Assembly (NCBI GenBank): GCA_963768175.1
Contig: CAVYGQ010000001.1
Coordinates: forward strand, 100,481 to 164,480
DNA: 64,000 nt
Direction: 5' to 3'
Origin: Candidatus Doudnabacteria bacterium
Lineage (GTDB): Bacteria; Patescibacteriota; Doudnabacteria; UBA920
Shown here: positions 19,792 to 63,338 of the stretch, one piece after another
Position numbering within the stretch: position 1 is the first letter of the stretch
Layout of the letters: every line of letters begins with the position of its first letter
Made by a program: the position numbers and the translations under genes
Notes under the pieces: generated by a model
Seen by the model: only the letters and a program-made list of their open reading frames with translations
Database searches by the model: none
What the model was told of the DNA's origin: nothing

Positions 19792-19907
19792 ATAGTTTAA
19801 TTATACCATTTTTTAATAAAACTAAAAAACCGTCCTTTTGGGCAGTTTGGCTGGCCTTATTTGACTTAATCGGAGCTGAAATAGCTAGACTTATAAATAT
19901 TCCTTAA

Positions 19908-20537
19908 TTACTGGCAATTTTCATTTTTACTATGGGACACGACTTTTGCAAGGTCAGTTAAACCAATAAAAAATCCAGAATCAGATTTTTGAGAGCTAGC
20001 AATATAATTTTGGATTTCAGGATTTTTGCTCGTAATTCCAATAAAATAGGAAAATGAATCGCACAAATCTGGCTCGCTTAATAAACCCTCATCGTATGAA
20101 CTCTCAACAGTATCAAATTCTCCAAGATAATTATCAAGTTGTGCGTCTGTATACTGCCCGTGATTTTCTGTTAGTATGGGTTGCTTGCTCTCAATAGCGT
20201 CAATAATTTTTGTATTTGTATTATTGAAAAAAGCAGAATTTAAAGCGATGTTGTTCTCTGAAGCAGTTTGTTTTTTTGCATCATCAATAAGAACATAGGT
20301 CATAATAACTAGAATGACTGTAAAAGTCACTAAAGCCCAAGTAAGATACAAAAGCCTTTTTGAATATTTATCGCTACTGTTACTAAAATTTATTATATTG
20401 GTATTCAGTTCTTTTATGCCACCTCCAAGATTCCGCAATTCTATTACTGTCGTTTTCATCCTATCGTTAGTTGTTGCGGCTAAATCACGGTCTATACCGT
20501 TACCAGTTTTTATTTCTTTAAATTCATCTTCTCCCAT
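19908..20537 (-). CDS. Hypothetical single-pass membrane protein (island cargo)
   Basis: A ~60-aa cytoplasmic N-terminus and one TM helix precede an Asn/Ser-rich extracytoplasmic domain. The gene is AT-rich and is the last gene of a three-gene minus-strand operon. Confidence 0.45.
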   Translation of the reverse strand: MGEDEFKEIKTGNGIDRDLAATTNDRMKTTVIELRNLGGGIKELNTNIINFSNSSDKYSKRLLYLTWALVTFTVILVIMTYVLIDDAKKQTASENNIALNSAFFNNTNTKIIDAIESKQPILTENHGQYTDAQLDNYLGEFDTVESSYDEGLLSEPDLCDSFSYFIGITSKNPEIQNYIASSQKSDSGFFIGLTDLAKVVSHSKNENCQ

Positions 20538-20561
20538 AAATAAATTTAAAATTCAGGATAG

Positions 20562-21026
20562 CTATTTTTTCTTTAAAATTATCTCCGCCAAAATTTTAGA
20601 ATCCTCTTTTTTTAATTTCAGCTTTCCGTCTGGTTTTGTTTCTCCCTGATTACCCATTTGAGATTGGGAGGCAGTCCAAATACTTATCTCTGACAGACCA
20701 AATGTGCCTAGCAACGCTCCAGTTTTCACATTGACATTTTGGACTTTATCAAACGGCATTATTTTACTGCTCTTGGCTACGACGCCGCTGTTTATTGTTA
20801 TTTTGTCATCATCAAAAACAAAAGTTATAGCGTGATTTTCAATCATTAAAATAATAAAAATTGGTAGCACTAGAATAATAAAAAAGCCCCAAAAAATACC
20901 CCAAAAACTGGAATTAGGAATAAAGGAAAAAATCAGGGCAAATATCAAGGCCATTATTACCAGAGTAGTAAACTGATACCACTTTAAAATTTTAGGCAAA
21001 TGATTCAATTCATTTTTATTGAGCAT
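20562..21026 (-). CDS. Membrane protein with bacterial PH domain (DUF304/YdbS-like)
   Basis: Two N-terminal TM helices are followed by a PH-like segment (ITFVFDDDKITINSGVVAKSSKIMPFDKVQNVNVKTGALLGTFG). Confidence 0.5.
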   Translation of the reverse strand: MLNKNELNHLPKILKWYQFTTLVIMALIFALIFSFIPNSSFWGIFWGFFIILVLPIFIILMIENHAITFVFDDDKITINSGVVAKSSKIMPFDKVQNVNVKTGALLGTFGLSEISIWTASQSQMGNQGETKPDGKLKLKKEDSKILAEIILKKK

Positions 21027-21085
21027 TAGTTTGTGGACTTAATTTTAATTACAAATTCCGCTTATATTACACACCTTTTAAAAAT

Positions 21086-21706
21086 TTATGCGAACTGTTG
21101 CAACTGTCCTAAAATGGCCTGTTCCAGCTGAACAGTATCATAATGGCGTTGAGGCTTGATGTGTAAAATATTTAACTCTGAGGCTCTCAAAGCCCCGTCT
21201 AAAAAATCATCTCTTAATTTTCTATTGAAATAATTATGGGTATAATCATCCAGTTCAATAACCAAAAGTGGCGACAAATAAACTTTGTCAAAGATTACAA
21301 AATCTACTGTCTTTTTGTTTATCCTGTTAAAGTTGCTGTAAGTGGAATTTGTGCCGTATCTTTCCAGTCCGCCTTGGACTTCAATGATTCGGGATAAGGC
21401 AACCTGTGGCATAATAAAATACCTGTCCTTGATTATTTCCTGTAGCACTCCGAAAAACTTGTATTCGGTTTGGGTCATCAGGTATCGCTTTTTTCTGAAT
21501 GGATAAATTTTATCGTCTTTTTTTACTTCCTGAATTTTTGTATTGCCAGCATTACTAGGCGGTAAAGGTATCTCGGAATAATTTTGCTTTGAGCTTTTTA
21601 TGATGTAACTGGCAAGAATGATTATGATTATTAAACCAAATAAAAAATCCATAAATTTGCTTTTAGAAACACAAAGCCCCGGTCCAGCCGGGCTTTTACA
21701 CCCCAT
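21086..21706 (-). CDS. DUF2726-domain protein (NERD/restriction-endonuclease-like fold), membrane-anchored
   Basis: An N-terminal TM helix precedes the DUF2726 signature (TVDFVIFDKVYLSPLLVIELDDYTH ... RDDFLDGAL...LNILHIK). Confidence 0.55.
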   Translation of the reverse strand: MGCKSPAGPGLCVSKSKFMDFLFGLIIIIILASYIIKSSKQNYSEIPLPPSNAGNTKIQEVKKDDKIYPFRKKRYLMTQTEYKFFGVLQEIIKDRYFIMPQVALSRIIEVQGGLERYGTNSTYSNFNRINKKTVDFVIFDKVYLSPLLVIELDDYTHNYFNRKLRDDFLDGALRASELNILHIKPQRHYDTVQLEQAILGQLQQFA

Positions 21707-22000
21707 ACCCCTTTCGGGATATGACCATAAGACAGTAGCTGAACGCGGGGTTCAGTATGTCTTATGGTTTTACAGCCGTGCCTGATTAAAGGTTTAGGCC
21801 ATTCAGTTGTGATTAAATTATACCAAACTTGACAACAATTTTAAAGGGGTGTATGGTGGAGTTAGTTCATTAAAAAGTTAATAATTAAACGTAAGTTTTA
21901 TTTCTCCTCCCTCGGAGTAAGACAGGGGCTATGCCGTTTTGAACACAAAAACGGTGTGGCGTTTTGACCGCTTGTCTCAGCCATTAGAGGCCTTACAAAA

Positions 22001-22207
22001 GTGTTTGTGGGGTTTAATATGTCTGGGTTCAGTAATGAGCTAAAACAGCGTTTAATTGATTATTTTCAAACGAAATACGGACAAAAACTAACCTCAGAAC
22101 AAGCTGAGGCTTTTTTATTGTCCCTTGCGAATCTGTATTCGCTGGTGGTAGAGCGGCGGGCGGGCCCGCAGGGCCAGCCCGACCGCCGCTCTACCTGTAT
22201 TACTTGA
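22001..22207 (+). CDS. Small hypothetical protein upstream of the recombinase (possible accessory or directionality factor)
   Basis: The 68-aa ORF ends in a GC-rich hairpin (gagcggcgggcgggcccgcagggccagcccgaccgccgctc). No motifs were recognised. Confidence 0.25.
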   Translation: MFVGFNMSGFSNELKQRLIDYFQTKYGQKLTSEQAEAFLLSLANLYSLVVERRAGPQGQPDRRSTCIT

Positions 22208-22322
22208 ATTAAGCTACACATAAGGGGATTTAATAATTACATAATTAATTTTAAGTTCTGTCAAAATAATTTGTATTTTTCTTTTGGTTAGATATATAAT
22301 CAAGCTAATTAAAAAATCAAAT

Positions 22323-23792
22323 ATGAAATATATAATCTACACCCGTAAATCATCCGAGGCCTCTGACCGCCAAGTCCTGTCCATTGAATCGCAGGAAAAT
22401 GAGTTATTGGCTTTGGCTGATAGGAATGGGGCTAAGGTTGGTAAAATATTCCGTGAGAGTATGTCAGCCAAACAGCCAGGCCGTCCTGAATTTGAAAAAT
22501 TAATAAAACTGATTGAACAAAATCCCTGCTCTGTGCTATTCGTCTGGAAACTTGACCGCCTCGCTCGTAACCCCGTTGATGAGGGTAAAATTAAGTGGCT
22601 CCTGCAAAACAAGACCATAGCCCAAATTATTACGCCTGACAGAATTTATAATCCCAATGACAATGCCTTAATCGCTTCTGTGGAATTTGGAATGGCTAAT
22701 CAGTATATTCGTGATTTATCGTCCAATGTAAAACGAGGCAATAGGACTAAACTTCAAAAAGGTGAAATGCCTGGTGCGGCTCCTATCGGCTACTTGGATA
22801 ATCCCTTAACCAAATTAAAAACTATTGACGCTCTAAAAGCTCCACTGATAAAACAAGCATTTGAACTTTATGCGACTGGGGCATACAGCTTAAAAACAGT
22901 TGGTAAAATGATTGAGACTTCAGGCCTTAGAAGTAAACTCGGCAATCCTCTAAAAAAAGCCATACTGCACCATATGTTTACAAATCCTTTTTACTACGGA
23001 GCCATTAGGCATAATGGAGAAATATATCAAGGAGTTCACGAGCCAATTATTTCCAAAACATTATTTGATACAGTGCAATATGTCTTAAGCGGTAAAACCC
23101 GCCCTAAAAAACAAAAACACTTCTTCCCTGTTAGAGGCTATATGCTCTGTCATTCCTGCGGCTGTCTGCTTACTGCCACAACTAAAAAAGGCCATTCATA
23201 TTATTATTGCACTAATGGCAAAGGCAACTGCCAACAACACAAAAAATATTTAAGAGATAAAGCCGTGGACAAACTCGTGGCTAAAACCTTAAACGAAATT
23301 AAATTTGATACCTCAATGATTGAAATGGCTTATCTCGCTTACAAGGAAAAAATCCTAAATGGCAACGATAATTCTCAAACTAGAAAATCTGAACTCTCCT
23401 TACAGCTCAAATCTGAACAGGACAAGCTCTCTAATCTCGCCAAGGTTATTTCCTCTAAGCCGACACTCGCTAACTCCCTAGAGGCTGAAATTTTATCTCT
23501 AGAGGTAAAGATTAAATCCATTGAGCAACAGATTAAGCAAACTGACAAACAGACCCTCCAGGAGCAATTATTTACTTTGGAACAAACAAAAAAGGCCTTT
23601 TTACAGGCCAGTTCCGCATCTTTTGACTATTTGGATAGCGATGATTACCAAAAATTTGAACTGCTAAAAAATTTACTTTGGAACCTCAAGGTAGAAAATC
23701 AGAAAGTCCAACAATATCAGTTCAAAAGTTATTATCAACTTATGGCTGAAAGCCCTAAAAACCTTCAAATTTCTGGTTGGCTGGGGTGGTAG
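22323..23792 (+). CDS. Large serine recombinase (resolvase/invertase catalytic domain, recombinase domain, zinc ribbon)
   Basis: The N-terminus YIIYTRKSSEASDRQVLSIESQ carries the catalytic Ser, with a Cys cluster (CHSCGC...C) and a C-terminal coiled-coil. The likely start is the ATG at 22323. The 3' end overlaps a tRNA-Gln-derived repeat. Confidence 0.85.
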   Translation: MKYIIYTRKSSEASDRQVLSIESQENELLALADRNGAKVGKIFRESMSAKQPGRPEFEKLIKLIEQNPCSVLFVWKLDRLARNPVDEGKIKWLLQNKTIAQIITPDRIYNPNDNALIASVEFGMANQYIRDLSSNVKRGNRTKLQKGEMPGAAPIGYLDNPLTKLKTIDALKAPLIKQAFELYATGAYSLKTVGKMIETSGLRSKLGNPLKKAILHHMFTNPFYYGAIRHNGEIYQGVHEPIISKTLFDTVQYVLSGKTRPKKQKHFFPVRGYMLCHSCGCLLTATTKKGHSYYYCTNGKGNCQQHKKYLRDKAVDKLVAKTLNEIKFDTSMIEMAYLAYKEKILNGNDNSQTRKSELSLQLKSEQDKLSNLAKVISSKPTLANSLEAEILSLEVKIKSIEQQIKQTDKQTLQEQLFTLEQTKKAFLQASSASFDYLDSDDYQKFELLKNLLWNLKVENQKVQQYQFKSYYQLMAESPKNLQISGWLGW

Positions 23793-23803
23793 GATTCGAA
23801 CCT
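23778..23803 (-). repeat. Partial copy of the tRNA-Gln 3' end (candidate att-site direct repeat)
   Basis: tggctggggtggTaggattcgaacct matches the 3' 26 nt of tRNA-Gln at 26228-26253 with one mismatch. Confidence 0.6.
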
Positions 23804-23931
23804 TATTAGGTCTAGAACCAAACCCTTTTAATTATGGCCATAAATGTCCTTTAATATAAGTTGGGGCAATTTAGTTTCCAAAAGTATAAAGTGCTATACT
23901 ATAATTAAATAGATTATTATAGTATATAACT

Positions 23932-24639
23932 ATGGGGAAATATCCAAAAATTAAATTTATTATTGATTTTAAAGAAGACAAAAAAAATGCGCTGAGATTT
24001 TTAGGAGATACTAATGAATGGAAAAAGGAGCGTTTTTTTCCGTCTGAGTTACAATATGTTCTACAGAATAAATTAGCACAGAAAGAAAAACAAAGGATTG
24101 TTAATAACTTTGTTAAACAGTATTTTTTAAAAAATGAGTTTGAAATTAAAATTGGGGTAAGAGCAATTGCAAATGAATGGATGTCGATTGGAAGGTATTT
24201 TTTTGATCTAGTTGACAAGCTATTTTACGACCACCCTTGGCCAAAAGGAAACTACGTGGGATATGCAAGTATTTTTAATATGTTTCCTAGAGATATTGAG
24301 AAAAAAACCTTTTCATTTCCATATCGGAAGGAAGATGTCAGTTGGGCAATAAAAGTGATAGCCCATGAAATGTTACACTTTATTTTTTTTGACTATTTAA
24401 ATAAAGTGTATAGGTATACTCAAAATACCCAAATAAAAAATAAAAATTCAAACTTCATTTGGCAATTATCAGAGGCTCTAAACAATATAATAGAAAATTC
24501 GCGATCATACCGTAAGGTCATACCAATAAAAAAATTGAGCAAGCCATATCCAGGAAACGAAAAAATTTATAAAAAACTACTGGCCCAATGGAATAAAAAA
24601 AACGATATAAAAAAGTTATTGGATAGCGCTTTAGGGTAA
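23932..24639 (+). CDS. Hypothetical protein with an HExxH motif (possible zinc-dependent hydrolase)
   Basis: It has an IAHEMLH motif and an AT-rich composition. No other similarity was recognised. Confidence 0.45.
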   Translation: MGKYPKIKFIIDFKEDKKNALRFLGDTNEWKKERFFPSELQYVLQNKLAQKEKQRIVNNFVKQYFLKNEFEIKIGVRAIANEWMSIGRYFFDLVDKLFYDHPWPKGNYVGYASIFNMFPRDIEKKTFSFPYRKEDVSWAIKVIAHEMLHFIFFDYLNKVYRYTQNTQIKNKNSNFIWQLSEALNNIIENSRSYRKVIPIKKLSKPYPGNEKIYKKLLAQWNKKNDIKKLLDSALG

Positions 24640-24796
24640 ATAAAACGGAGCCCCAATCTTGGAAGAGAGGGGCTCCGCTACGATAGCGGCAGGAACGAGT
24701 CCTTGCCTAGGCGCAGTCGTAACCGCTGTTGACAGGTACCCCAAATTCTAGACACTTAGTCTGAGGTATAATAAGGCTAGAAAGGAATCTAACTTT

Positions 24797-25063
24797 ATGC
24801 CCAAAGGCAAATACAAAGTCAGTCCGGAAGTTAAAACTCAAATTCTAAAACGAATTAAGGAAGAAGGTGTCAGCGTCACCCAGGCGGCCGAGGAGCACGG
24901 CCTGTCCACCCAAACCATTTACGGCTGGATAGCCAAAGGGGTTACAGCTCCGCCGTCCGTGCTTGAACTCTCCCGCCTGAAGCGGGAAAATCAAACCCTC
25001 CACGAGATTATCGGCCGGCTGACAGTCAAACTGTCATTGGCGGAAAAAAAGGACATTGGTTGA
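24797..25063 (+). CDS. IS3 transposase OrfA (HTH plus leucine zipper)
   Basis: An HTH (VSVTQAAEEHGLSTQTIYGW) and a heptad-Leu C-terminus are present. The gene ends inside an A7G run at 25044-25051. Confidence 0.85.
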   Translation: MPKGKYKVSPEVKTQILKRIKEEGVSVTQAAEEHGLSTQTIYGWIAKGVTAPPSVLELSRLKRENQTLHEIIGRLTVKLSLAEKKDIG

Positions 25064-25895
25064 AGACCTGTCCGCCGCTATGCACCTTGAAAATCCGACT
25101 AAGACCGAGTTGGCCAGGAGCTTGGGAGTCAGCAGAGCCAGTCTGTATTACGAACCTACCCTGCCGCAAAAAGACTGGCTCCTTAAAATCCGCATTGAAC
25201 AAACCCTGCATGACCACCCCAGCTACGGCCACAAACGGCTGGCTCCGGCGCTACATGTTAACAAGAAAAGAATCCGGCGCACCATGAGGCTGTTTGGTAT
25301 TAAGCCTTACCGCAGGACAGGCAGAAAGCTAAGAAAAGCAAGGGATTTGGGACAAATTTCCGCTCCTTACCAAAACTGGCTGATGCTGATTCCGTTTCCA
25401 GAAGAGCCGGGAATTGTCTGGGTCAGTGACTTTACCTACATATCATTCCACGGCCGGTTTGTTTACCTGGCGACGATAATAGATTTATTCACCAGGGAGG
25501 TTGTCGGCTGGTCAGTCTGGACCGCGCATAGCAGCCAGCTAGTTCTACTGGCTTTAATTGACGCACTGGAAAAACATCCGGCGGCCAAATATCTCCATTC
25601 CGACCAGGGGCAAGAATACAAATCCCGAACCTACTGTAGGCTGGCCGAACAGGCCGGTATTACAATTTCCATGAGCCACAAATCATCACCGTGGGAGAAC
25701 GGCTACCAAGAATCCTTTTATGGCAAGCTCAAGACTGACTTAGGTGATCCGGGGAGGTTTAAGACCTTGGGAGAGCTAACGGCCGAAATTTACCTCCTCA
25801 TCTACAGCTACAACCACGACAGAATCCATACATCATTAAAAATGCCGCCGTCAGCATTTGCCGACCGGCAGCGGAATCAAGTATCATTAACTTAA
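25023..25895 (+). CDS. IS3 transposase OrfB (DDE integrase core), frame open from 25023 and overlapping orfA by 41 nt
   Basis: An rve-type DDE core is present (WVSDFTYI ... HSDQGQEY ... with a downstream E). It lies in the +1 frame relative to orfA. Confidence 0.85.
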   Translation, partial: QSNCHWRKKRTLVEDLSAAMHLENPTKTELARSLGVSRASLYYEPTLPQKDWLLKIRIEQTLHDHPSYGHKRLAPALHVNKKRIRRTMRLFGIKPYRRTGRKLRKARDLGQISAPYQNWLMLIPFPEEPGIVWVSDFTYISFHGRFVYLATIIDLFTREVVGWSVWTAHSSQLVLLALIDALEKHPAAKYLHSDQGQEYKSRTYCRLAEQAGITISMSHKSSPWENGYQESFYGKLKTDLGDPGRFKTLGELTAEIYLLIYSYNHDRIHTSLKMPPSAFADRQRNQVSLT

Positions 25896-26141
25896 CCTTA
25901 AAAAACCGCAGAGAAGGTGCCTAAAGAAATGGGTACCTTACAGGGGAAATTTCTTTCAGCTCTGTATAAAATTTAGCTATTAAAAGACAAAAAAGTGTAC
26001 CTGGAATGAAGTAGGACTTCGAACCAAGATAAACAATAGTTTAGACAAAAATAAGAGCATGGACTAAAATTCATGCTCTTATTTTCTATAAGTTCTTGTC
26101 CTTTAACTTAGGGTTGGTAGGTCTGTAGGAACCAAAATTTC

Positions 26142-26205
26142 TGGCTGCCCGGGTTGGATTCGGACCAACGCATGGAGGCTCCAAAGGCCCCCTTGCCCCG
26201 CACCA
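26142..26205 (-). other. Degenerate tRNA-Gln-like remnant (pseudo-tRNA)
   Basis: tggctgcccgggttggattcggaccaacgcatggaggctccaaaggccc... parallels the tRNA-Gln 3' two-thirds, including the CTTTGGAG anticodon region. The acceptor stem cannot pair and the length is only ~64 nt. Confidence 0.4.
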
Positions 26206-26227
26206 ATTTTTAACAAATTTATTCTCT

Positions 26228-26302
26228 TTGGCTGGGGTGGCAGGATTCGAACCTGCGAATGGCGCCTCCAAAGGGCGCTGCCTTACCACTTGGCGACACC
26301 CC
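26228..26302 (-). tRNA. tRNA-Gln (anticodon UUG)
   Basis: The minus strand reads UGGGGUGUCGCCAAGUGGUAAGGCAGCGCCCUUUGGAGGCGCCAUUCGCAGGUUCGAAUCCUGCCACCCCAGCCA. It folds as a cloverleaf with U1-A72, a 7-nt anticodon loop CUUUGGA and an encoded CCA. It is close to E. coli tRNA-Gln. Confidence 0.9.
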
Positions 26303-26439
26303 AAAATAAGACAACTAAGGTATATTATAAAATAAATTCGGGAAAAAAGAAAGCCCAACCTTGAGTATGGGGAGCTTGCGGAATTTGCGTTTGACAGCCA
26401 AAATGTGCTATAATTTCTTTAGGATTAATCCCTAAATTT

Positions 26440-27994: not shown

Positions 27995-28573
27995 ATGAAA
28001 AGATTTCGGAAAATCGTAAAATATCTTTTATATATTATCGTAAGCTTTTTGCTGGTAGATTTGGCTGTGGTCGTTTTTTTTAGCGTTTATCGGCCGCCGC
28101 TACAAAAAGCAGATGCAATTATTATTTTAGGCTCGGCCATAAATACACCTTCCTTATATAACCGTACGATGGACGGGTTAAAATTGTATAATCAGGGCAA
28201 AGCCGCCGTAATGGTGCTTTCCGGCGGCGTGGATTATCCAAGGTCCATGCCGGAAGCGGACTATATGGAAAAAGTGATTTTGCAAAACGCTTCCAGCCCG
28301 CTGCCGAATTTAATTTTGGAGCCGAACTCCAACTCCACTTACCAAAATATTGTGAATTCCAAAGCCTTAATCCCGAATGCCAAAAGCATTATTGTGGTCA
28401 GCGACAGTTTCCATTTGGCCCGCGCCGTTTTGATGGCCGAGCGCGAAGGTTTTAGCCCGGTTTACTGGAGCTCGCCCGATCCGGTTTATTACAACAAAAC
28501 CGAACTGGCTTTTTACTATTTGCGCGAAGTTTTTGCAATGATAGATTATATTCCGAAGTTCATTTTTGGATGA
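27995..28573 (+). CDS. DUF218 (YdcF/SanA/ElyC-like) membrane-anchored protein
   Basis: An N-terminal TM helix is followed by AIIILGSA...VLSGG...IIVVSDSFHLARAV, typical of DUF218. Confidence 0.65.
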   Translation: MKRFRKIVKYLLYIIVSFLLVDLAVVVFFSVYRPPLQKADAIIILGSAINTPSLYNRTMDGLKLYNQGKAAVMVLSGGVDYPRSMPEADYMEKVILQNASSPLPNLILEPNSNSTYQNIVNSKALIPNAKSIIVVSDSFHLARAVLMAEREGFSPVYWSSPDPVYYNKTELAFYYLREVFAMIDYIPKFIFG

Positions 28574-28656
28574 ATTTTGCCCTTGACACTGCACCTTTTT
28601 GCTTGTAAGATGATTGGTCTTGCATAACCTGCAAGCGGAAAGAGGAGGATGTAAAC

Positions 28657-29124
28657 GTGAGAGCTTTCTTAGTATTCTTGACATTGTTGGCCCCGACGAT
28701 GGCCAGCGCCCAGCAGGTGGACAAGATTCTGTTCTTCGGTCCGGGGTTTTCTTCGTCCTTGGCGAACGGTGCCAAAAGCGTCTCTGCCATCGGCGGAGCC
28801 AAGCTGGTCATCCACCTTGGCACCGGCGGCTGGTTCTCGCAGCTGTCCTGCTCCGCGAGTTTCGTGGAGCCGCAGATGACGGGAGCCAAGTCGTATTGGT
28901 CCATGCGACCGTCTGTCACTTTGGGTTACCGGTTCCGCAGCGGGAAAAGCCGATTCTCGGTTTTTGACGGGTTCGGCGAAACCCGCAACAAGGTTGGCGA
29001 TTTCCTGCCGACAGCAGTCGGCGGGGTGATTGTCAATCTCAAGGGTCGTTGGGGCGACCTCACTGACGTGAGCAGGAATGCTCAGTCGTGGGGGTTTTCC
29101 ACAACACTCGGCTACCGTTTTTAG
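28657..29124 (+). CDS. GC-rich signal-peptide protein resembling a small outer-membrane beta-barrel (C-terminal ...LGYRF)
   Basis: The gene is ~58-60% GC against a ~42% background. It has a signal peptide (MRAFLVFLTLLAPTMASAQQ), alternating hydrophobic beta-strand patterns and an aromatic C-terminal Phe. Confidence 0.45.
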   Translation: MRAFLVFLTLLAPTMASAQQVDKILFFGPGFSSSLANGAKSVSAIGGAKLVIHLGTGGWFSQLSCSASFVEPQMTGAKSYWSMRPSVTLGYRFRSGKSRFSVFDGFGETRNKVGDFLPTAVGGVIVNLKGRWGDLTDVSRNAQSWGFSTTLGYRF

Positions 29125-29225
29125 GAGGCCACTTTTATGTGGTACTCCGATGCATGAGGCGCGCGGATGCGACAATCCGCGCGTTTCAATCTTAAATTTG
29201 ACGGATTTTGGGGGGTTTGGTATAA

Positions 29226-29476
29226 TATCAGCAATTAAACCCCCACACCAATTTGATATAAATTTGTTAAGGGTTTAGCAAAATCCTCCAACCATTTCAA
29301 AATGAATTGGTGTGGGGGTAAACCAAAGACAGTTGGCCTCCGACTGAAACGTCGGAGTTAATTATCATCGCAAGATGATTGCCCACCGAGGAAGTGTAGC
29401 GCGCCCATTCATGGGCTGCAGCCGATAAATCGGCGCGCTACATCACACTCGGGTAAGCCCGAGTATTTTTGTTCGG
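29226..29476 (+). ncRNA. Candidate structured sRNA (promoter, five consecutive hairpins, intrinsic terminator); class unknown
   Basis: A TGGTATAAT -10 at 29217-29225 is followed by stems aaacccccacaccaatt/aattggtgtgggggtaaacc, ctccgac/gtcggag, atcatc-gcaa-gatgat and gtagcgcgcc/ggcgcgctac. The final stem cactcgggtaagcccgagtg is followed by atttttg. Confidence 0.3.
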
Positions 29477-29542
29477 CGTCATCCTGAACGAAGTGAAGGA
29501 TCTCATTAAAGAGATTCCTCGCTGCGCTCGGAATGACGCCGG
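29472..29542. repeat. Family-1 palindromic element in the rplJ leader region
   Basis: ttcggcgtcatcctgaacgaagtgaaggatctc ... gagattcctcgctgcgctcggaatgacgccgg. Confidence 0.8.
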
Positions 29543-29728
29543 TGAGAGTTGACGGATATTTATTGGTTCACCCTGTTAAATAATTCGCCAAAGGCGAATT
29601 GCCGCGAAGCGGCATTTAACAGGGACACCCTGTTAAATAATTTTTTAGTAAAAAATTACTGCGTAGCAGTATTTAACAGGGTAAAGGTCGATACTAGGCA
29701 CTTAGCACTTAGCACTAATAACTAACTT

Positions 29729-30244
29729 ATGCCAAAAGCTAAATCACAAAAGATTGAAGATCTTAAAGAACTTACGGCCAAACTTAAAGAGGCCAAAGGC
29801 GTGGTCTTTTCCGATTACCGCGGCACAACCGTAAAAGACATGGACATTTTCCGCAAAACCCTGCGCAAGGAAAAAGTCTTTTGCAAAGTCTACAAATTGA
29901 CTTTGGTTAAAAGGGCCATGAAAGATGCCGGCTTAGACGGAGAAATCGCCGACTATAAGACGCCGGTAATACTTTCGGTCTCCAGCGACGACGAAACCAC
30001 CCCCGCCCGTTTGGTCAAAAACTTGTCCAAAGACTTAAAGACTATTTCGGTTTTGGAAGGCATTGTGGACAACAAATTGGTCAACAAGGCGCAAGTTTTG
30101 GCTCTAGCCGACTTGCCGAGCAAAAACCAGCTGCGCGCGCAAATCATCGCCACCATCAATGCGCCGGTTACGGGATTTGTCAATGTTTTGGTTGGCAATA
30201 TCAGAGGCTTGATAAACGTGCTCAACGCAGTCGTAACTAAATAA
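29729..30244 (+). CDS. rplJ: 50S ribosomal protein L10
   Basis: The N-terminus KSQKIEDLKELTAKLKEAKGVVFSDYRGTTVKDM is typical of L10. Confidence 0.9.
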   Translation: MPKAKSQKIEDLKELTAKLKEAKGVVFSDYRGTTVKDMDIFRKTLRKEKVFCKVYKLTLVKRAMKDAGLDGEIADYKTPVILSVSSDDETTPARLVKNLSKDLKTISVLEGIVDNKLVNKAQVLALADLPSKNQLRAQIIATINAPVTGFVNVLVGNIRGLINVLNAVVTK

Positions 30245-56436: not shown

Positions 56437-57756
56437 ATGACCCAAGATTCTTCAATCAAAAAATATCCCCATACAACCGCTGAAGTGGCGCAAATGTTAG
56501 GTATGCACCCGACCGGCCAGAATTTGCCCATGGGCAGTTTTGCTGTTTCCGATTTGCCGGTGGCAGACTTGCCGGTGGCCGAGGATGTTGTCTCCGGCCA
56601 AAAGCAGGCGGAGCCGGCAGCTTACGCGCCTGAGTTATCCGAAAATATGGGCAATGAAAAAGCCGCTTTACCTGACGAAAGCGAACTTGAGTCAATTCAG
56701 GAAAGGGCGGCTGACCAGCCTGTTTATGTTAAAGTGGGCAAAGCGCTTTTGCCTTACGCCGCTATTTTTTTGATCGGGATATTCTTGTATTATTTCTTTT
56801 TTACCAAAGTGGATTTTACCACGGTGTTTAAATTTTCTCCCAAAGCCGCCACCCCGCAAATAACGGAAATTCAGAAATTGGAACAACAGGACGCGGCTTC
56901 ATACCAAAGTTGGGTTGCCAGTTACTATTATGATGTCAGCGACCCCAACATTTTAGACCCCGAAGCCGACAATTCCGGCAACGGCTTATCTAATTTTCAA
57001 AAGTACCTTTTGAATTTAAACCCCAAATCTTACGATACTTTGGGCTTGGGGCAAGCCGACAGCCAGAGTATTGCCATGGGCATTAATCCGCTTACAGGCG
57101 GCCCTGAAACGGATGCCCAAAAAGCCATTGTCAGCAAATATATAGACATGGAAGTGGTGATGAACCGCTTGACCTTGTCTAATATGCAAAACCCTCCGGA
57201 AGTGGCCGGAGCCAATACCTCTGACGGCAACTCCGCGGAAAGCCAAAAGTTTTCCATCAGGGGCGGGACGTCCGCAAACCAGATTAACAGCAGCCAGGTG
57301 GACATTAATACCGGCGTGCCCGGTCTTTTGGAAATTCCCGATTTAAAAATAAAGGTCCCGATTATTTGGAGCACGGATCCTAAAAATTTCGACAATGATT
57401 TACAAATTGGCGTAGTCCATTATCCGAGCACGGCTTTGCCCGGGGAAATCGGCACCGCATACATAGCCGGCCACAGCAGCAATTATGTTTGGGCCAAAGG
57501 CAGTTATAACCAGATTTTTTCCAAGTTAGGGGATTTGGCCCTTAATACCTCGTTCAAAATTACGGTTACGCAACAAAGCGGCAAAACCGCGGTGCTTGAT
57601 TATGTTGTCACCAAAATCCAGCAATACAGCCCCACCGATCAGGCGCAATTTGAGAGCTCGGATAAATCCGTTGTCGCCCTTTCCACCTGCTGGCCGGTTG
57701 GCAGCACGGCAAAAAGATTGGTTGTGTTTGGACAGCTGACGCAAGTAGTAAAATAA
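56437..57756 (+). CDS. Sortase-family transpeptidase with long N-terminal extension
   Basis: A TM helix is followed by the sortase His (YIAGHSSNY), the catalytic Cys (VVALSTCWP) and the Arg (KRLVVFG). Confidence 0.75.
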   Translation: MTQDSSIKKYPHTTAEVAQMLGMHPTGQNLPMGSFAVSDLPVADLPVAEDVVSGQKQAEPAAYAPELSENMGNEKAALPDESELESIQERAADQPVYVKVGKALLPYAAIFLIGIFLYYFFFTKVDFTTVFKFSPKAATPQITEIQKLEQQDAASYQSWVASYYYDVSDPNILDPEADNSGNGLSNFQKYLLNLNPKSYDTLGLGQADSQSIAMGINPLTGGPETDAQKAIVSKYIDMEVVMNRLTLSNMQNPPEVAGANTSDGNSAESQKFSIRGGTSANQINSSQVDINTGVPGLLEIPDLKIKVPIIWSTDPKNFDNDLQIGVVHYPSTALPGEIGTAYIAGHSSNYVWAKGSYNQIFSKLGDLALNTSFKITVTQQSGKTAVLDYVVTKIQQYSPTDQAQFESSDKSVVALSTCWPVGSTAKRLVVFGQLTQVVK

Positions 57757-58919: not shown

Positions 58920-61900
58920 ATGAGCATCAAAACATTCTCTAAATTTAGTATGGGCTTAAAGGTCATCGCTATTTTAGGTATTACCTCTATGGCTGTTTTG
59001 GCGTTAGTCCCTAGGGAGGCTGGCGTTTTGCTGGCAGATAATAATGCTAATTGCACTACTTCCACCACGCCGACGTTTAACCCGTATCCGGTTTCAAATA
59101 ATCCCGGTAACTGTCAGGACTACCCGTTCATCGCTTCCAAAGTAATACACAGCGATGGTTCGCAAACCGGTTTTAGTACTGGTTCAATACAAGCCCAACC
59201 CGGTGATAAAGTTGAAGTCCAATTATACATAGATAACGGAGCCGCTTTAGGTTCTCCTGCTCTAACAAATATTCAATTAACAACCAGTGCCGTTCTAAGC
59301 GCAGGTTCTTCCCATTCCGTTTCGGCTTCCGTTACAGCCAGCAATGCCAATAACTCTTTAAGCGGTAGCTTAAACATTTTAACCCCAAACAGTTCCACTT
59401 TGCAGGTTGATCCTTTAACCGGGCAATGGTACCAGCAAACTACCTCCATGGGCAATTTGGGCAATATTGTTAACACTACGACCCATTTGCCCGACCAGGC
59501 CGCTTGTTTCCCTTATGTCCGATTTATTAATATGGTTTTTGATGTTGTCGGGCAACAGGTAACCCAATCCGTTACCTTAACCGCCACGCCAAACCCTGTT
59601 TGTATTGGAGCTTTAACTACCTATTCAATAACTTCTACTGTAAATGGCCCGATTGTTTGGACCTCAACTTTTAACGGCCAACCGACCGGTGAGAACAATT
59701 CTTATCCCGGACAGAATTTAACCCCGCAAAACGGAGTGTATGTTTGGAGCGCCGTGGGTGATTATTGGGGCGATCATTTCCACAGCGGCAATCCCTTGGC
59801 CGATGTCGGTACTTGGACTAAAACGGCGACCATTAATGGCGTGCAGAGCAATACCGTAACTTTTCAGGTTAAGGATTGTACGCCCCCCGTACAAAAATCC
59901 GCCAGCATCACCGCCACTTTAGGCAGCGCCAATAAAGCTCAGTGTTTATATAACGGCAATGTGACTTGGCAGAGCAGTGGTTATGATGCCGTGGCGGTTT
60001 ACGTCCAATCGGTTGGCGCCAACGACTATTCGCTGGTGGCTGCCAACCTTCAGGGCAGTACCAATATTCCCTGGTTCATTCCGGGCAGAAATTACGAGTT
60101 TACCCTTTGGACGGTCAGTGTTTCCAACGGCGTATACACCAAAGTAAGCCAGATTGCCGATCCGGCGATTGTCAACGTGCCTGCTTTGGATTGTACCGTG
60201 CCGGTGACTTTAACCTGCAGTGCTTCTCCTATTTTAGCCAATATCAACGATCCAGTAACTTTTGGTGCTTTAGGCGGTTCCGGTCCATACTCTTGGACTA
60301 ATGGCGAAAATCCCGCCACTGGTAGTGGCCAGAGTTTTACCACCAGTTTTTCTTCAGCCGGTAACAAAACCGTGACTGTCCACAGCCAAGACGGCCAGAT
60401 TGCCTATTGCAGTGTGACTATAAAACAGCCGGTTCAGAAACCCGCGACTTTAAATTGTGCTACCCCGACCATCCAAGCCAATATTGATGATACCGTAACC
60501 TTTGGTGCTAATGGCGGCACCGCTCCTTATTCCTGGAGTAATGGTGGCAATCCTTCCAACGGTAGCGGCCAGAATTTTTCTACCAAGTTTTCTTCTTCCG
60601 GCAACAAAACGGTTACCGTCTCTAGTTCCGACGGTCAGACTGCCTATTGCAGTGTGACTATAAATCCGCCCCCCGTAAACAAATCCGCCAGCATCACCGC
60701 CACTTTAGGCAGCGCCAATAAAGCTCAGTGTTTATATAACGGCAATGTGACTTGGCAGAGCAGTGGTTATGATGCCGTGGCGGTTTACGTCCAATCGGTT
60801 GGCGCCAACGACTATTCGCTGGTGGCTGCCAACCTTCAGGGCAGTACCAATATTCCCTGGTTCATTCCGGGCAGAAATTACGAGTTTACCCTTTGGACGG
60901 TCAGTGTTTCCAACGGCGTATACACCAAAGTAAGCCAGATTGCCGATCCGGCGATTGTCAACGTGCCTGCTTTGGATTGTACCGTGCCGGTGACTTTAAC
61001 CTGCAGTGCTTCCCCTAATCCGGTTGACATTAACAATCCGGTTATCTTTACCGCCACTGGCGGCGCCGCTCCTTATAATTGGAGTAACGGCGGCTATCCT
61101 TCCACCGGCAGCGGCCAGAGCTTTTCCACTACTTATTCCACAGCCGGCACCAAGACAGCTACGGTTTCCAGTTCCGACGGCCAGACCGCTAACTGCAGCG
61201 TGGTTGTCAAGCCGACAGTACAGCAAAATGCCCAGTTAACTTTGACTAAACAGGTCAAGAATCTGGGTCCCAGCCAGACCACCCTTTATGATAAAAGCGT
61301 GCTGGCCGAGCAAGGCGATGCCGTCCGCTATCTAATAACCGTAACCAATATCAGCTCCGTAACCGCCAACAATGTTTCAGTGACGGATACTCAAGGATCA
61401 AGTGCCGGTAATGTTACGACTTCCGGGTCAAACGGCAGTGCTGTTCCAATTTCTGGCAGCTTACAAAACGGTTTAAACTTCGGCTCTTTAGCCGCCGGAA
61501 GTTCGGTTTATATTACCTATACTTTACCGGTAAATGTCAACAGCGGCAGCATTGACAATACGGCAACGGTCAGCGCTTCCAATGCCAACAGTGCCAGCGA
61601 TTCGGCCGTTGTTACTATTACAGCAATTCCTATTTGCCAGGCCGACAGCAATTTTGCCTTAAACGCTTCTACTCCGGTCAAAAACGGCTCAAGCTATTCG
61701 GTTACTTTAACTTGGTCTTCCACAGGGAATAATCAAATTAAAATCACCCAAATTAATCCGGGCGCCGGTTATGAAAATACTATAGCCATCGGCAGTTCGA
61801 GTGGCAGTCAAACTATTAACGGCCTACTTCCGGGCAGCACTTACATCTTTAAGATGTATGATGTTTCTTGCAGCCAATTTTTAACCTCCGTCCAGGTTGT

Positions 61901-63338
61901 TACTCCTTCTAATCCGGGTCAGCTGACTTGTTCTGTTCAAAGTTCAACCATCAATTCGGGCTCTGCGGCTAACTTTACCGCCCAGGGCGGCATGGCTCCT
62001 TATAACTGGAGCGGTGATGGCAGTCCGTCAAGCGGAAGCGGTTCTTCTTATAATCCGGTTTACACCAACACTACTACGTCTTCCATAAATCACAGTGTTT
62101 CGGTTACAAGTTCCGACGGCCAGACCGCTAACTGCAGCGTGGTTGTTAACGGCCAGCAGCAAAATAACGGTAACATCAATAATAATTGCGTCAACAATTC
62201 CTGCAACGACACGACTAATAATACGGATAACTCTGTCAATAACAGCAATAATCCAATCACAACCAACACCGACAATTCCATTAATAATAGCTATAATAAC
62301 ACCAGCTCAATAAATGACAGCTACAACAATTATACCTATAACAACACGGTATATATTAGCAGCAACGGCAATGTGGTGCCGGCTAATCAGTTCAGCCAGC
62401 TCTCTATAACCAAAAGCGTCAGGGATGTTTATAACAATTATAACAGTTACAACAACTATTATAACGGAAGCTTCAGCAACAGCGTCAGCGCCAATAACGG
62501 CGATACCGTGCAGTTCCAAATTGTGGTCAGTAACAGCGGCTCGGCGACCGCCAACAACGTGCGCGTTACCGACATCCTGCCTTCGGGATTGAATTTGGTT
62601 TACGGCAGCGTAACGGTTAACGGGAGCCAGGCTTCCGACAACAATCTTTCCAACGGCATGTATTTGGGCAGCTTAAGCTCCAGCCAGTCGGAAACCATAA
62701 CCTTTTCGGCTACGGTTTCGGGATACGGCTCTTCCAGTAGCATCCAAAATACGGCTACAGCCAGTTCAGATAATGCCGGTTCGGTTCAGGCCAGCGCTTG
62801 GGTATTTGTTAACGGCAACGGCAATGTTTTGGGCGGCAACGTTAATTTAACCTACAGCAAGAGCGCGCTTAACAACACCAAAAATCAAGACGCCACCGCG
62901 GTAGCCGCATCCAGGGAAGACTTTATTACCTACACTTTGACCGCTTCCAACAGCGGCAACACGCCAGCTACCAATTTCATTATTACCGATGATTTATCCC
63001 AGGTTTTGCCTTATGCCGACATGACAGACTTCGGCGGCGGCAGCCTAAACGGCAATGTGATTACTTTCCCCGGGATAACCGTGCCGGCCAACGGTAGCGT
63101 CACCAGGAGCTTTGAGGTTAGGGTTAAGTATTCGCTCTCTAGTAATTTAAGCTATGTTATGACTAACACTTACGGCAATACCGTGACCATTAGGATTAAC
63201 ACCCCGCAAGTCTTAGGCGCCTTTACCGCTCCCAAGACCGGCGCGGACACCAATGCCTTTGTCTTTGCCGGAATCTTAACGTCCGGACTTGCGATCTACA
63301 AAAAGAAAAATTTGCTGATGAAATTGATATTTAATTAA
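58920..63338 (+). CDS. Giant (1472 aa) repeat-rich cell-surface protein with candidate sortase sorting signal
   Basis: The N-terminus has a signal/TM segment. Several ~90-aa Ig-like modules are present (TFGA.GG.APYSW.NG.NP..GSGQ.F.T.FSS.G.KTVTV.S.DGQ.A.CSV.), with three DUF11-like domains and an Asn-rich low-complexity tract. The C-terminus reads TAPKTG, then a hydrophobic stretch, then KKKN. Confidence 0.8.
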   Translation: MSIKTFSKFSMGLKVIAILGITSMAVLALVPREAGVLLADNNANCTTSTTPTFNPYPVSNNPGNCQDYPFIASKVIHSDGSQTGFSTGSIQAQPGDKVEVQLYIDNGAALGSPALTNIQLTTSAVLSAGSSHSVSASVTASNANNSLSGSLNILTPNSSTLQVDPLTGQWYQQTTSMGNLGNIVNTTTHLPDQAACFPYVRFINMVFDVVGQQVTQSVTLTATPNPVCIGALTTYSITSTVNGPIVWTSTFNGQPTGENNSYPGQNLTPQNGVYVWSAVGDYWGDHFHSGNPLADVGTWTKTATINGVQSNTVTFQVKDCTPPVQKSASITATLGSANKAQCLYNGNVTWQSSGYDAVAVYVQSVGANDYSLVAANLQGSTNIPWFIPGRNYEFTLWTVSVSNGVYTKVSQIADPAIVNVPALDCTVPVTLTCSASPILANINDPVTFGALGGSGPYSWTNGENPATGSGQSFTTSFSSAGNKTVTVHSQDGQIAYCSVTIKQPVQKPATLNCATPTIQANIDDTVTFGANGGTAPYSWSNGGNPSNGSGQNFSTKFSSSGNKTVTVSSSDGQTAYCSVTINPPPVNKSASITATLGSANKAQCLYNGNVTWQSSGYDAVAVYVQSVGANDYSLVAANLQGSTNIPWFIPGRNYEFTLWTVSVSNGVYTKVSQIADPAIVNVPALDCTVPVTLTCSASPNPVDINNPVIFTATGGAAPYNWSNGGYPSTGSGQSFSTTYSTAGTKTATVSSSDGQTANCSVVVKPTVQQNAQLTLTKQVKNLGPSQTTLYDKSVLAEQGDAVRYLITVTNISSVTANNVSVTDTQGSSAGNVTTSGSNGSAVPISGSLQNGLNFGSLAAGSSVYITYTLPVNVNSGSIDNTATVSASNANSASDSAVVTITAIPICQADSNFALNASTPVKNGSSYSVTLTWSSTGNNQIKITQINPGAGYENTIAIGSSSGSQTINGLLPGSTYIFKMYDVSCSQFLTSVQVVTPSNPGQLTCSVQSSTINSGSAANFTAQGGMAPYNWSGDGSPSSGSGSSYNPVYTNTTTSSINHSVSVTSSDGQTANCSVVVNGQQQNNGNINNNCVNNSCNDTTNNTDNSVNNSNNPITTNTDNSINNSYNNTSSINDSYNNYTYNNTVYISSNGNVVPANQFSQLSITKSVRDVYNNYNSYNNYYNGSFSNSVSANNGDTVQFQIVVSNSGSATANNVRVTDILPSGLNLVYGSVTVNGSQASDNNLSNGMYLGSLSSSQSETITFSATVSGYGSSSSIQNTATASSDNAGSVQASAWVFVNGNGNVLGGNVNLTYSKSALNNTKNQDATAVAASREDFITYTLTASNSGNTPATNFIITDDLSQVLPYADMTDFGGGSLNGNVITFPGITVPANGSVTRSFEVRVKYSLSSNLSYVMTNTYGNTVTIRINTPQVLGAFTAPKTGADTNAFVFAGILTSGLAIYKKKNLLMKLIFN
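59895..60226 (+). repeat. 332-bp internal direct repeat, copy 1 (identical copy at 60681-61012)
   Basis: By eye the two stretches are nucleotide-identical, with a period of 786 bp (262 aa). Confidence 0.85.
60681..61012 (+). repeat. 332-bp internal direct repeat, copy 2
   Basis: See copy 1. Confidence 0.85.

Follow-up and report, generated by a model that had tools for sequence, protein, structure and literature searches.

A GC-rich islet of about 620 bp in DNA from a Candidatus Doudnabacteria bacterium is a real and autonomous one-gene cassette of a CPR chromosome, and it probably encodes a Sec-exported, OmpX-like barrel that would embed in an extracytoplasmic lipid layer. Structure prediction identifies the encoded protein with high confidence as a minimal eight-stranded up-and-down barrel of the outer-membrane protein (OMP) type. 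The gene is found between the same neighbours in DNA from other samples, it is under purifying selection, and it belongs to a small family that carries no annotation. The analysis covered a window of 64,000 nucleotides, that is, the whole stretch of DNA, taken from a contig of 949 kb.

Layout of the cassette and its expression signals

The islet lies between a DUF218/YdcF-family gene and the promoter and leader of rplJ. The features are, in window coordinates:

27995-28573, plus strand: DUF218/YdcF-family gene, the left neighbour (Pfam PF02698, E = 8e-26)
28574-29196, plus strand: inserted cassette, from the DUF218 stop codon (28571-28573) to the -35 box of the rplJ promoter (29198)
28583-28611, plus strand: sigma-70-like promoter match TTGACA-17-TAAGAT (10/12 in a consensus scan), putative in function
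28619-28635, plus strand: hairpin CTTGC-ATAACCT-GCAAG in the 5'-UTR, read from the sequence
28640-28649, plus strand: ribosome binding site (RBS) AAGAGGAGGA, read from the sequence, 7 nt ahead of the GTG start
28657-29124, plus strand: barrel ORF with GTG start, 155 aa, stop codon included in the coordinates
28657-28710, plus strand: signal peptide MRAFLVFLTLLAPTMASA, residues 1-18, with predicted SPase I cleavage between ASA and QQ
28711-29124, plus strand: predicted mature eight-stranded beta-barrel of 137 aa, ending in TLGYRF, and stop codon
29155-29188, plus strand: terminator-like GC-rich hairpin GCGCGCGGAT / ATCCGCGCG, then TTTCAATCTT (inverted repeat I11)
29198-29470, plus strand: rplJ promoter TTGACG-17-TATAAT with TG (scan 11/12) and structured leader, the right neighbour, outside the cassette
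29447-29470, plus strand: terminator closing the rplJ leader

The cassette holds a single gene, and its limits, as given by the comparison of occupied and empty sites, are essentially those of the segment 28560-29180 singled out in the original prediction. Neither the list of inverted repeats nor the comparison with relatives revealed terminal repeats or target-site duplications at its ends. Judged by consensus matches, the cassette is an autonomous unit with promoter-like, RBS and terminator-like signals of its own. These signals recur in the orthologous locus of contig L005, where both promoter hexamers, TTGACA and TAAGAT, are kept, the 5'-UTR hairpin retains its stem with an altered loop (CTTGCGCAACCCGCAAG), the counterpart of the RBS is AAAAGGAGGGGG ahead of an ATG start, and the terminator-like hairpin is present with altered arms. 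Any termination efficiency ascribed to this hairpin is putative, as its T-run is weak. Analogous promoter-like and terminator-like signals flank every other copy of the barrel gene that was read. An ORF of 168 aa on the opposite strand (28669-29175) was considered as a gene and is taken to be a by-product of high GC, since it is the plus frame that agrees with dN/dS and with the pattern of conservation.

The barrel gene is flanked by housekeeping genes, DUF218 on one side and rplJ-rplL on the other. The nearest mobile genes are an rve transposase (25056-25895) and a serine recombinase (22284-23792), and both are separated from the cassette by backbone genes that are common to relatives. The core of the rplJ leader is kept in six genomes, with compensatory changes at seven base pairs; a scan of 28500-29760 against Rfam gave matches at chance level only, and none for this leader.

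Composition of the islet

The barrel ORF has a GC content of 58.1% (GC1/2/3 of 0.50/0.51/0.73) compared to 43.9% in the whole window and 43-49% in the adjoining genes, whose GC3 is 0.44-0.58. The GC3 of 0.73 also exceeds the value of about 0.54 in host genes. Among all 468-bp windows of the 64 kb the highest GC, 0.592, is found at 28701, and the GC of the ORF itself is matched by just 0.55% of such windows (z = 2.6). A contrast of 58-60% with a background of 42% had been predicted; this holds for the ORF but slightly overstates the case for the segment 28560-29180, which has 55.6%. A check of tetranucleotide frequencies had also been suggested, and the profile of 28575-29194 does deviate from that of the window (z = 2.5), although it ranks 13th of 634 and not first.

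Much of this excess follows from the protein that is encoded. When the protein was recoded with the codon usage of the host, the expected GC was 53.1% and the expected GC3 0.59, as against the observed 58.1% and 0.73. The protein is rich in Gly (15%) and Ser (13%), and from the recoding approximately two thirds of the GC excess over the mean of the window is attributable to amino acid composition and one third to GC3. The barrel homologues measured have 54-59% GC on contigs or in hosts of 44-53% GC, and the barrel gene is richer in GC than its flanks at the loci measured (six distinct genes), by 3.5 points on the higher-GC contigs and up to 13 points for the copy in the window. On the higher-GC contigs its GC3 is not anomalous. 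High GC is accordingly largely a trait of the barrel family and is therefore no proof of recent import. An origin from a high-GC donor, with amelioration still incomplete, could have contributed too, since synonymous sites are near saturation.

The same locus in other genomes

An islet that holds the 468 bp with the highest GC in the window and deviates in tetranucleotides could in principle be a chimera, or a contaminating fragment of a higher-GC diderm within a CPR contig, and the original prediction had raised this origin. Independent assemblies refute it, and we regard it as extremely unlikely. The Logan contig L001 (run ERR10755942) is identical to the window base for base over 28011-29503 and spans both GC boundaries. 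The order CMAS, DUF218, barrel gene, rplJ and rplL is found also in L005 and in L006/L059, which come from other samples and carry a barrel gene 79% identical to that of the window; the same barrel gene as in these is present in the short third contig L007. A partial copy with 73% identity lies upstream of rplJ-rplL-dus in L060, and in the P0014 contig a 60%-identical copy follows a DUF218 gene of 61% identity. Orthologues with 60-81% identity thus occur between the same neighbours in DNA from other samples and assemblers. Furthermore, the alignment of the window to L005 shows that non-coding DNA, junctions included, is kept on both sides of the barrel ORF, and at synonymous sites the barrel gene has diverged about as far as the genes that flank it.

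Occupied and empty sites were sought through 151 DUF218 homologues. Three relatives share the DUF218 gene and have no barrel ORF: L061/L062, L063 and L065. The first of these, a Doudnabacteria MAG (PLYC01000010) whose DUF218 gene is 76% identical, has an empty site, and in L062 only about 35 bp, with no gene between, lead from the DUF218 stop codon to the rplJ promoter and leader. In L063 and L065 the same site is filled by unrelated small genes on the minus strand. Because relatives show sites that are empty or otherwise filled, the barrel unit is to be seen as an inserted cassette, and the space between DUF218 and rplJ as a hot spot of small accessory genes. Since some relatives have no barrel gene, it must have been lost or replaced there, or else inserted at this site more than once. 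The small minus-strand gene in L063 is itself GC-rich (55% vs 45%).

Beyond this locus, close homologues of the barrel occur in three or more further genomic contexts, and each of these has promoter-like and terminator-like signals of its own. The contigs that carry other members of the family (L002, L004, L070/L071 and L066-L069) have no further gene in common with the window. Among JGI metagenome contigs the barrel gene was found at two loci only, both from one peat sample. The orthologues come from samples of peat and permafrost, 3300014839 being an example.

Predicted structure of the encoded protein

The N-terminus of the protein resembles a signal peptide as judged from its sequence: the n-region is basic and is followed by a hydrophobic core and an A-x-A site. 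In all 21 members of the family alignment the sequence of this segment varies while its type is kept, and the invariant region begins at AQQ. A lipobox Cys is absent from the N-terminus, and AlphaFold places a helix at residues 2-15.

The remainder is predicted to form eight strands, at residues 21-34, 40-53, 59-72, 80-92, 100-110, 116-127, 132-140 and 144-154. AlphaFold2 returned eight strands with a pLDDT of 74 when supplied with 14 sequences, and with 21 sequences the pLDDT was 92.8 and the pTM 0.79, the five models all falling between 91 and 93. In the model the barrel is closed and consists of eight antiparallel strands of membrane-spanning length. The closest structures in the fold search were eight-stranded transmembrane barrels of Gram-negative outer membranes. 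With the weaker first model, Foldseek had already placed OmpA, OmpX, PagP and designed transmembrane barrels at the top, although the TM-scores were 0.4-0.5 and the E-values fell short of significance. The beta-barrel fold that had been predicted is thus borne out both by the structural model and by its nearest matches.

The two faces of the strands differ markedly. One is 64% hydrophobic or aromatic with a conservation of 0.60, and the other is 30% hydrophobic and 50% Gly/Ser/Thr with a conservation of 0.72, a contrast that across the eight strands was reached by only 4 of 2000 within-strand shuffles. Trp, Tyr and Phe are found at both ends of the strands, and strand 5 is ambiguous. The signal peptide, the alternation of hydrophobicity and the C-terminal Phe noted in the original prediction are all present, the alternation being beyond chance.

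The main rival to a membrane barrel is a secreted, water-soluble barrel, likewise of eight strands and comparable to YceI, avidin or the lipocalins, which would bind a small or lipidic ligand outside the cell and might for instance scavenge host lipids. The putative lipid-facing side of the protein is moderately hydrophobic, with a mean Kyte-Doolittle value of 0.93. The polarity of the faces, with inside and outside assigned from the sequence pattern, would fit a membrane barrel and is the reverse of that expected for a soluble one. We consider the soluble alternative rather unlikely, and favour a barrel that resides in a lipid layer.

All predicted loops are very short, with 3-7 residues at either end of the barrel. 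The protein ends in STTLGYRF, and 18 of the 21 family members end in Phe or Trp. The beta-signal consensus, zeta-x-G-x-x-[aromatic/hydrophobic]-x-[aromatic/hydrophobic], is located at the C-terminus, and internal BAM signals have been described at the -5 strand (PMC10945584). The Y-x-F end of the protein fits the aromatic-x-aromatic end of the beta-signal, and position 3 is Thr where the consensus has Gly. The C-terminal GYRF is shared with E. coli OmpX, which ends in GVGYRF (checked in the PDB). Strand 4, the -5 strand, also ends in LGYRF. An internal duplication of two four-stranded halves, each ending in TLGYRF, was considered and rejected, as hhalign aligned the nine-residue motif only (probability 6%).

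A rare and unannotated family under purifying selection

A word-indexed search of approximately 15 billion proteins yielded 14 sequences with 59-100% identity. Seven members at greater distance, all full-length, came from a profile search against 1.84 billion cluster representatives, and a single further one from a second search of this kind. With a weak partial match to a protein of 1063 aa left out of the count, the family comprises about 23 sequences, all of 150-176 aa and all unnamed or labelled 'hypothetical protein'.

Comparison with curated collections gave no assignment. The window protein had no match in Pfam or NCBIfam at E <= 1-10, and it scored below every cut-off for the curated OMP families, which included PF13505 (OMP_b-brl), OmpA_membrane, Ail_Lom and OmpW as well as those of NCBIfam. 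PF13505 was touched by P0002 alone among the 21 members, at 19.1 bits against a cut-off of 28.7. As these tests of sequence membership failed, the protein is filed in no curated OMP family. Sequence searches of Pfam, NCBIfam and the PDB returned nothing above threshold, whether the query was the single protein, each of the family members or the profile, and the profile matched PDB sequences at noise level only. Homology to OmpX was examined by profile comparison and rejected, the hhalign probability of 0.3% being not significant. These proteins make up a new sequence family, so far unannotated, whose fold is known yet unexpected in this lineage.

Two divergent members of the family lie adjacent to an NMT1_2 gene, and for one distant homologue there is an apparent overlap of 4 bp with it. 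This overlap is probably due to an over-extended gene call, as a terminator and a later ATG are found between the genes. The NMT1_2 protein has no obvious signal peptide.

Selection on the barrel gene was assessed against the orthologue in L005. The dN/dS ratio is 0.11, and the dS of 1.19 is similar to that of CMAS, DUF218 and rplJ (0.88-1.06). The identity of the barrel tracks that of DUF218, with 79 vs 72% in L005 and 60 vs 61% in the P0014 contig. The low dN/dS, the neighbour-like dS and the parallel identities indicate that the barrel gene is functional and has long been inherited together with its neighbours.

These data bear on the idea that the gene is a recent passenger from a diderm neighbour or host, functionless in the CPR bacterium, with its GC as the signature of the donor. 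The cassette architecture and the empty sites do point to insertion, and with a GC3 well above that of the host an ancestral GC3 may still be ameliorating (pS about 0.6). However, a functionless newcomer is difficult to reconcile with a dN/dS this low across lineages with near-saturated synonymous sites, with divergence in step with DUF218, or with a GC of 54-59% in every host examined, even where this is not anomalous. Nor was any relative found in the 185,579 GTDB species representatives, which were scanned with two peptide patterns that divergent members may escape, or in IMG/VR, GenBank phages and PLSDB plasmids. We find a recent passenger quite unlikely. Horizontal acquisition from a diderm, as put forward in the original prediction, is likewise unsupported as stated, since these scans and the protein searches revealed no relative outside the tiny unannotated family, the gene has diverged at the pace of its neighbours and the GC is largely a family trait.

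The host and its envelope

The host is, by its sequence, a CPR (Doudnabacteria-like) bacterium. For the AspRS encoded in the window, identity reaches 85% with MAGs labelled Candidatus Doudnabacteria or Patescibacteria group, and the gene content of the window is CPR-like. Bacteria of the CPR are ultra-small and for the most part dependent on other cells. A monoderm host of the CPR type had been predicted, and this agrees with the AspRS placement and with the view of CPR as monoderm and devoid of an outer membrane (PMC12102498; bioRxiv 10.1101/2021.05.31.446380). In the window a sortase gene adjoins that of a DUF11 surface protein of 1472 aa, whose C-terminus is sorting-signal-like, with APKTG, a hydrophobic stretch and KKK. 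Sortase and surface protein, paired by their adjacency, look like wall anchoring of the Gram-positive type. No domain for outer-membrane biogenesis was found in about 35 proteins scanned within the 64-kb window.

To our knowledge CPR also lack BAM. As an outer membrane and BAM are both considered to be missing, the barrel has no known destination or route of insertion.

One way to accommodate the protein is that this Doudnabacteria lineage possesses an unrecognised outer lipid layer of its own, in which the barrel would be a regular outer-membrane protein. The protein does have the features of a resident OMP, and its gene has strong signals and is monocistronic, in the manner of ompX or ompA. 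The Gram-positive-type anchoring suggested by the sortase, the negative scan for outer-membrane biogenesis domains and the literature on CPR envelopes cited above all speak against it, and the family is too rare and patchy for a core component of the envelope, with close relatives that do not have the gene. An outer layer of this kind is therefore highly unlikely.

A model for export and insertion

In the reading that we prefer, that of an exported barrel embedded in an extracytoplasmic lipid layer, the protein would be exported by Sec and its signal peptide cleaved between ASA and QQ. The mature barrel would then become embedded in a layer of lipid beyond the cytoplasmic membrane. OmpA-TM, OmpX, PagP and designed barrels insert spontaneously in vitro, and by analogy the insertion of the present barrel may be spontaneous, probably without the BAM machine. 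It could act as a membrane anchor or contact point, or else let small hydrophobic molecules through a narrow conduit; such roles are likelier than those of an adhesin or a porin because the loops are so short. The most plausible target would be the interface with a diderm host cell. That a CPR lineage exports a minimal barrel of the OmpX/NspA type which inserts BAM-free into some membrane that is not the cytoplasmic membrane of the exporting cell is a more specific proposal, which we put forward tentatively and hold to be doubtful. The outer membrane of the host diderm would be the most interesting target, and there the barrel might function as an anchor or conduit.

Monomeric transmembrane beta-barrels count as a hallmark of diderm outer membranes and of their descendants in organelles, and they are assembled by BAM/Omp85. 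A conserved and selected OMP-type barrel in CPR, by its sequence exported by Sec, clashes with this view, and three readings follow. The protein may be delivered to the membrane of another cell, a reading relevant to the way in which CPR epibionts attach to their hosts and draw on them. Some CPR may possess an unrecognised outer lipid layer. Or a membrane-type barrel may have been repurposed, as the original prediction also allowed. If BAM-free insertion into a foreign membrane is true, a monoderm would here for the first time be using a monomeric OMP-type barrel, and the protein would offer a molecular handle on the contact between epibiont and host. The family is very rare and is known here from computation. 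As it has no annotation and no Pfam model, it is invisible to marker-based surveys of diderms and monoderms.

Comparison with known systems

The closest folds to the predicted barrel are small eight-stranded barrels of outer membranes: NspA of Neisseria (1p4t), the transmembrane domain of OmpA (1qjp, 3nb3) and OmpX (1qj8), and further PagL (2erv), OmpW (2f1t), the N-domain of OprF (4rlc) and TtoA of Thermus (3dzm). Compared to these, the mature form of the window protein is small, with just 137 aa, and its CPR host is presumed to have neither an outer membrane nor BAM. The window protein also differs from barrels of the OmpX, NspA and OmpA type in having no detectable sequence homology to them. 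NspA, OmpX and Opa carry extracellular extensions for binding, whereas the loops of the window protein are restricted throughout to 3-7 residues. Transmembrane beta-barrels designed de novo (6x9z, 6x1k) have a comparable fold and no sequence similarity to the window barrel, which unlike them is natural, conserved and under purifying selection.

At the level of gene organisation, the cassette resembles the morons of phages. Morons encoding small OMPs, such as lom and bor of lambda, are units of promoter, gene and terminator that lie between two genes and deviate in composition. The cassette is moron-like in being its own transcription unit, as far as consensus matches to expression signals indicate, in its position as an insert between two genes that adjoin each other in relatives, and in its deviant GC (58% vs 43-47% in the neighbours). 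The likeness may extend to the protein, as Lom is listed as a relative of OmpX (PDB entry) and the OmpX/Ail family consists of eight-stranded barrels. Unlike the lambda morons lom and bor, the cassette lies outside any prophage or mobile element, between housekeeping genes.

The DUF218/rplJ intergenic site and the barrel gene

In two relatives, the position between the DUF218 gene and rplJ, where the window carries the barrel gene, is occupied by other small genes.

L063 4688-4915, minus strand: small gene in the DUF218/rplJ intergenic site
L065 4829-5179, minus strand: small gene in the same site

Both are unrelated genes, and both lie on the opposite strand. One encodes a 75-aa hydrophobic protein, has its own terminator and a GC content of 55% compared to 45% for its contig, and the other encodes a 116-aa protein. 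The site seems to gather small accessory genes.

Antisense to the barrel gene runs an ORF that spans nearly all of it and probably reflects nothing more than the high GC.

28669-29175, minus strand: antisense ORF, 168 aa

The most distant members of the barrel family (28-30% identity to the window protein) were found on three contigs, in each case followed by a terminator and a gene for an NMT1_2-domain protein of 464-501 aa.

L066 2166-4129: distant family member and NMT1_2-domain gene
L068 5611-7574: the same pair
L069 5422-7364: the same pair

This adjacency is conserved in all three. The remaining neighbours vary, and no obvious signal peptide was seen in the three NMT1_2-domain proteins.

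Envelope genes and the low-GC region

56437-57756: sortase gene
58920-63338: surface-protein gene

The surface protein (1472 aa), whose gene comes after that of the sortase, contains DUF11 repeats, and its C-terminus resembles a signal for cell-wall sorting: APKTG, a hydrophobic stretch and KKK in that order. The two genes point to an envelope of Gram-positive type in this genome.

Apart from the barrel cassette lies a region (about 19900-26300) of low GC (0.31-0.37) and mobile-element content, probably an integrated element adjoining tRNA-Gln.

21086-21706, minus strand: DUF2726 protein
21690-21800, minus strand: LOOT RNA (70 bits)
22284-23792: large serine recombinase
25056-25895: rve-type transposase
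26229-26303, minus strand: tRNA-Gln

The rplJ leader

A structured leader upstream of rplJ is conserved across loci, both with the barrel orthologue (L005, L060) and without it (L062, L063, L065).

29198-29470, plus strand: rplJ leader
29447-29470, plus strand: intrinsic terminator at its 3′ end
29567-29685: tandem pair of palindromic 57-nt units (CACCCTGTTAAATAATT...ATTTAACAGGG in each)
L005 4459-4609; L060 438-595; L062 4679-4830; L063 5000-5142; L065 5168-5292: counterpart leaders

The tandem units, which lie downstream of the leader terminator and ahead of the start codon of rplJ, hold all four arms of the palindrome 12-mer present in the window, a number reached in none of 100 shuffles. 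The corresponding stretches that were read from L005, L062, L063 and L065 lack them. They could be a binding site for a protein, or a palindromic insertion of small size.

The leader starts at a strong promoter (TTGACG-17-TATAAT with TG), after which two hairpins are enclosed by one outer stem, and compensatory changes occur at seven base pairs among the six loci. An invariant box, TTGCCCACCGAGGAA, lies 3′ of the enclosed hairpins and is separated from the terminator by variable hairpins; its CCGAG could act as an antiterminator by pairing with the terminator 5′ arm. Rfam gave no match to the leader, L10_leader included, and the leader is probably an L10/L12 autoregulatory attenuator of CPR type.
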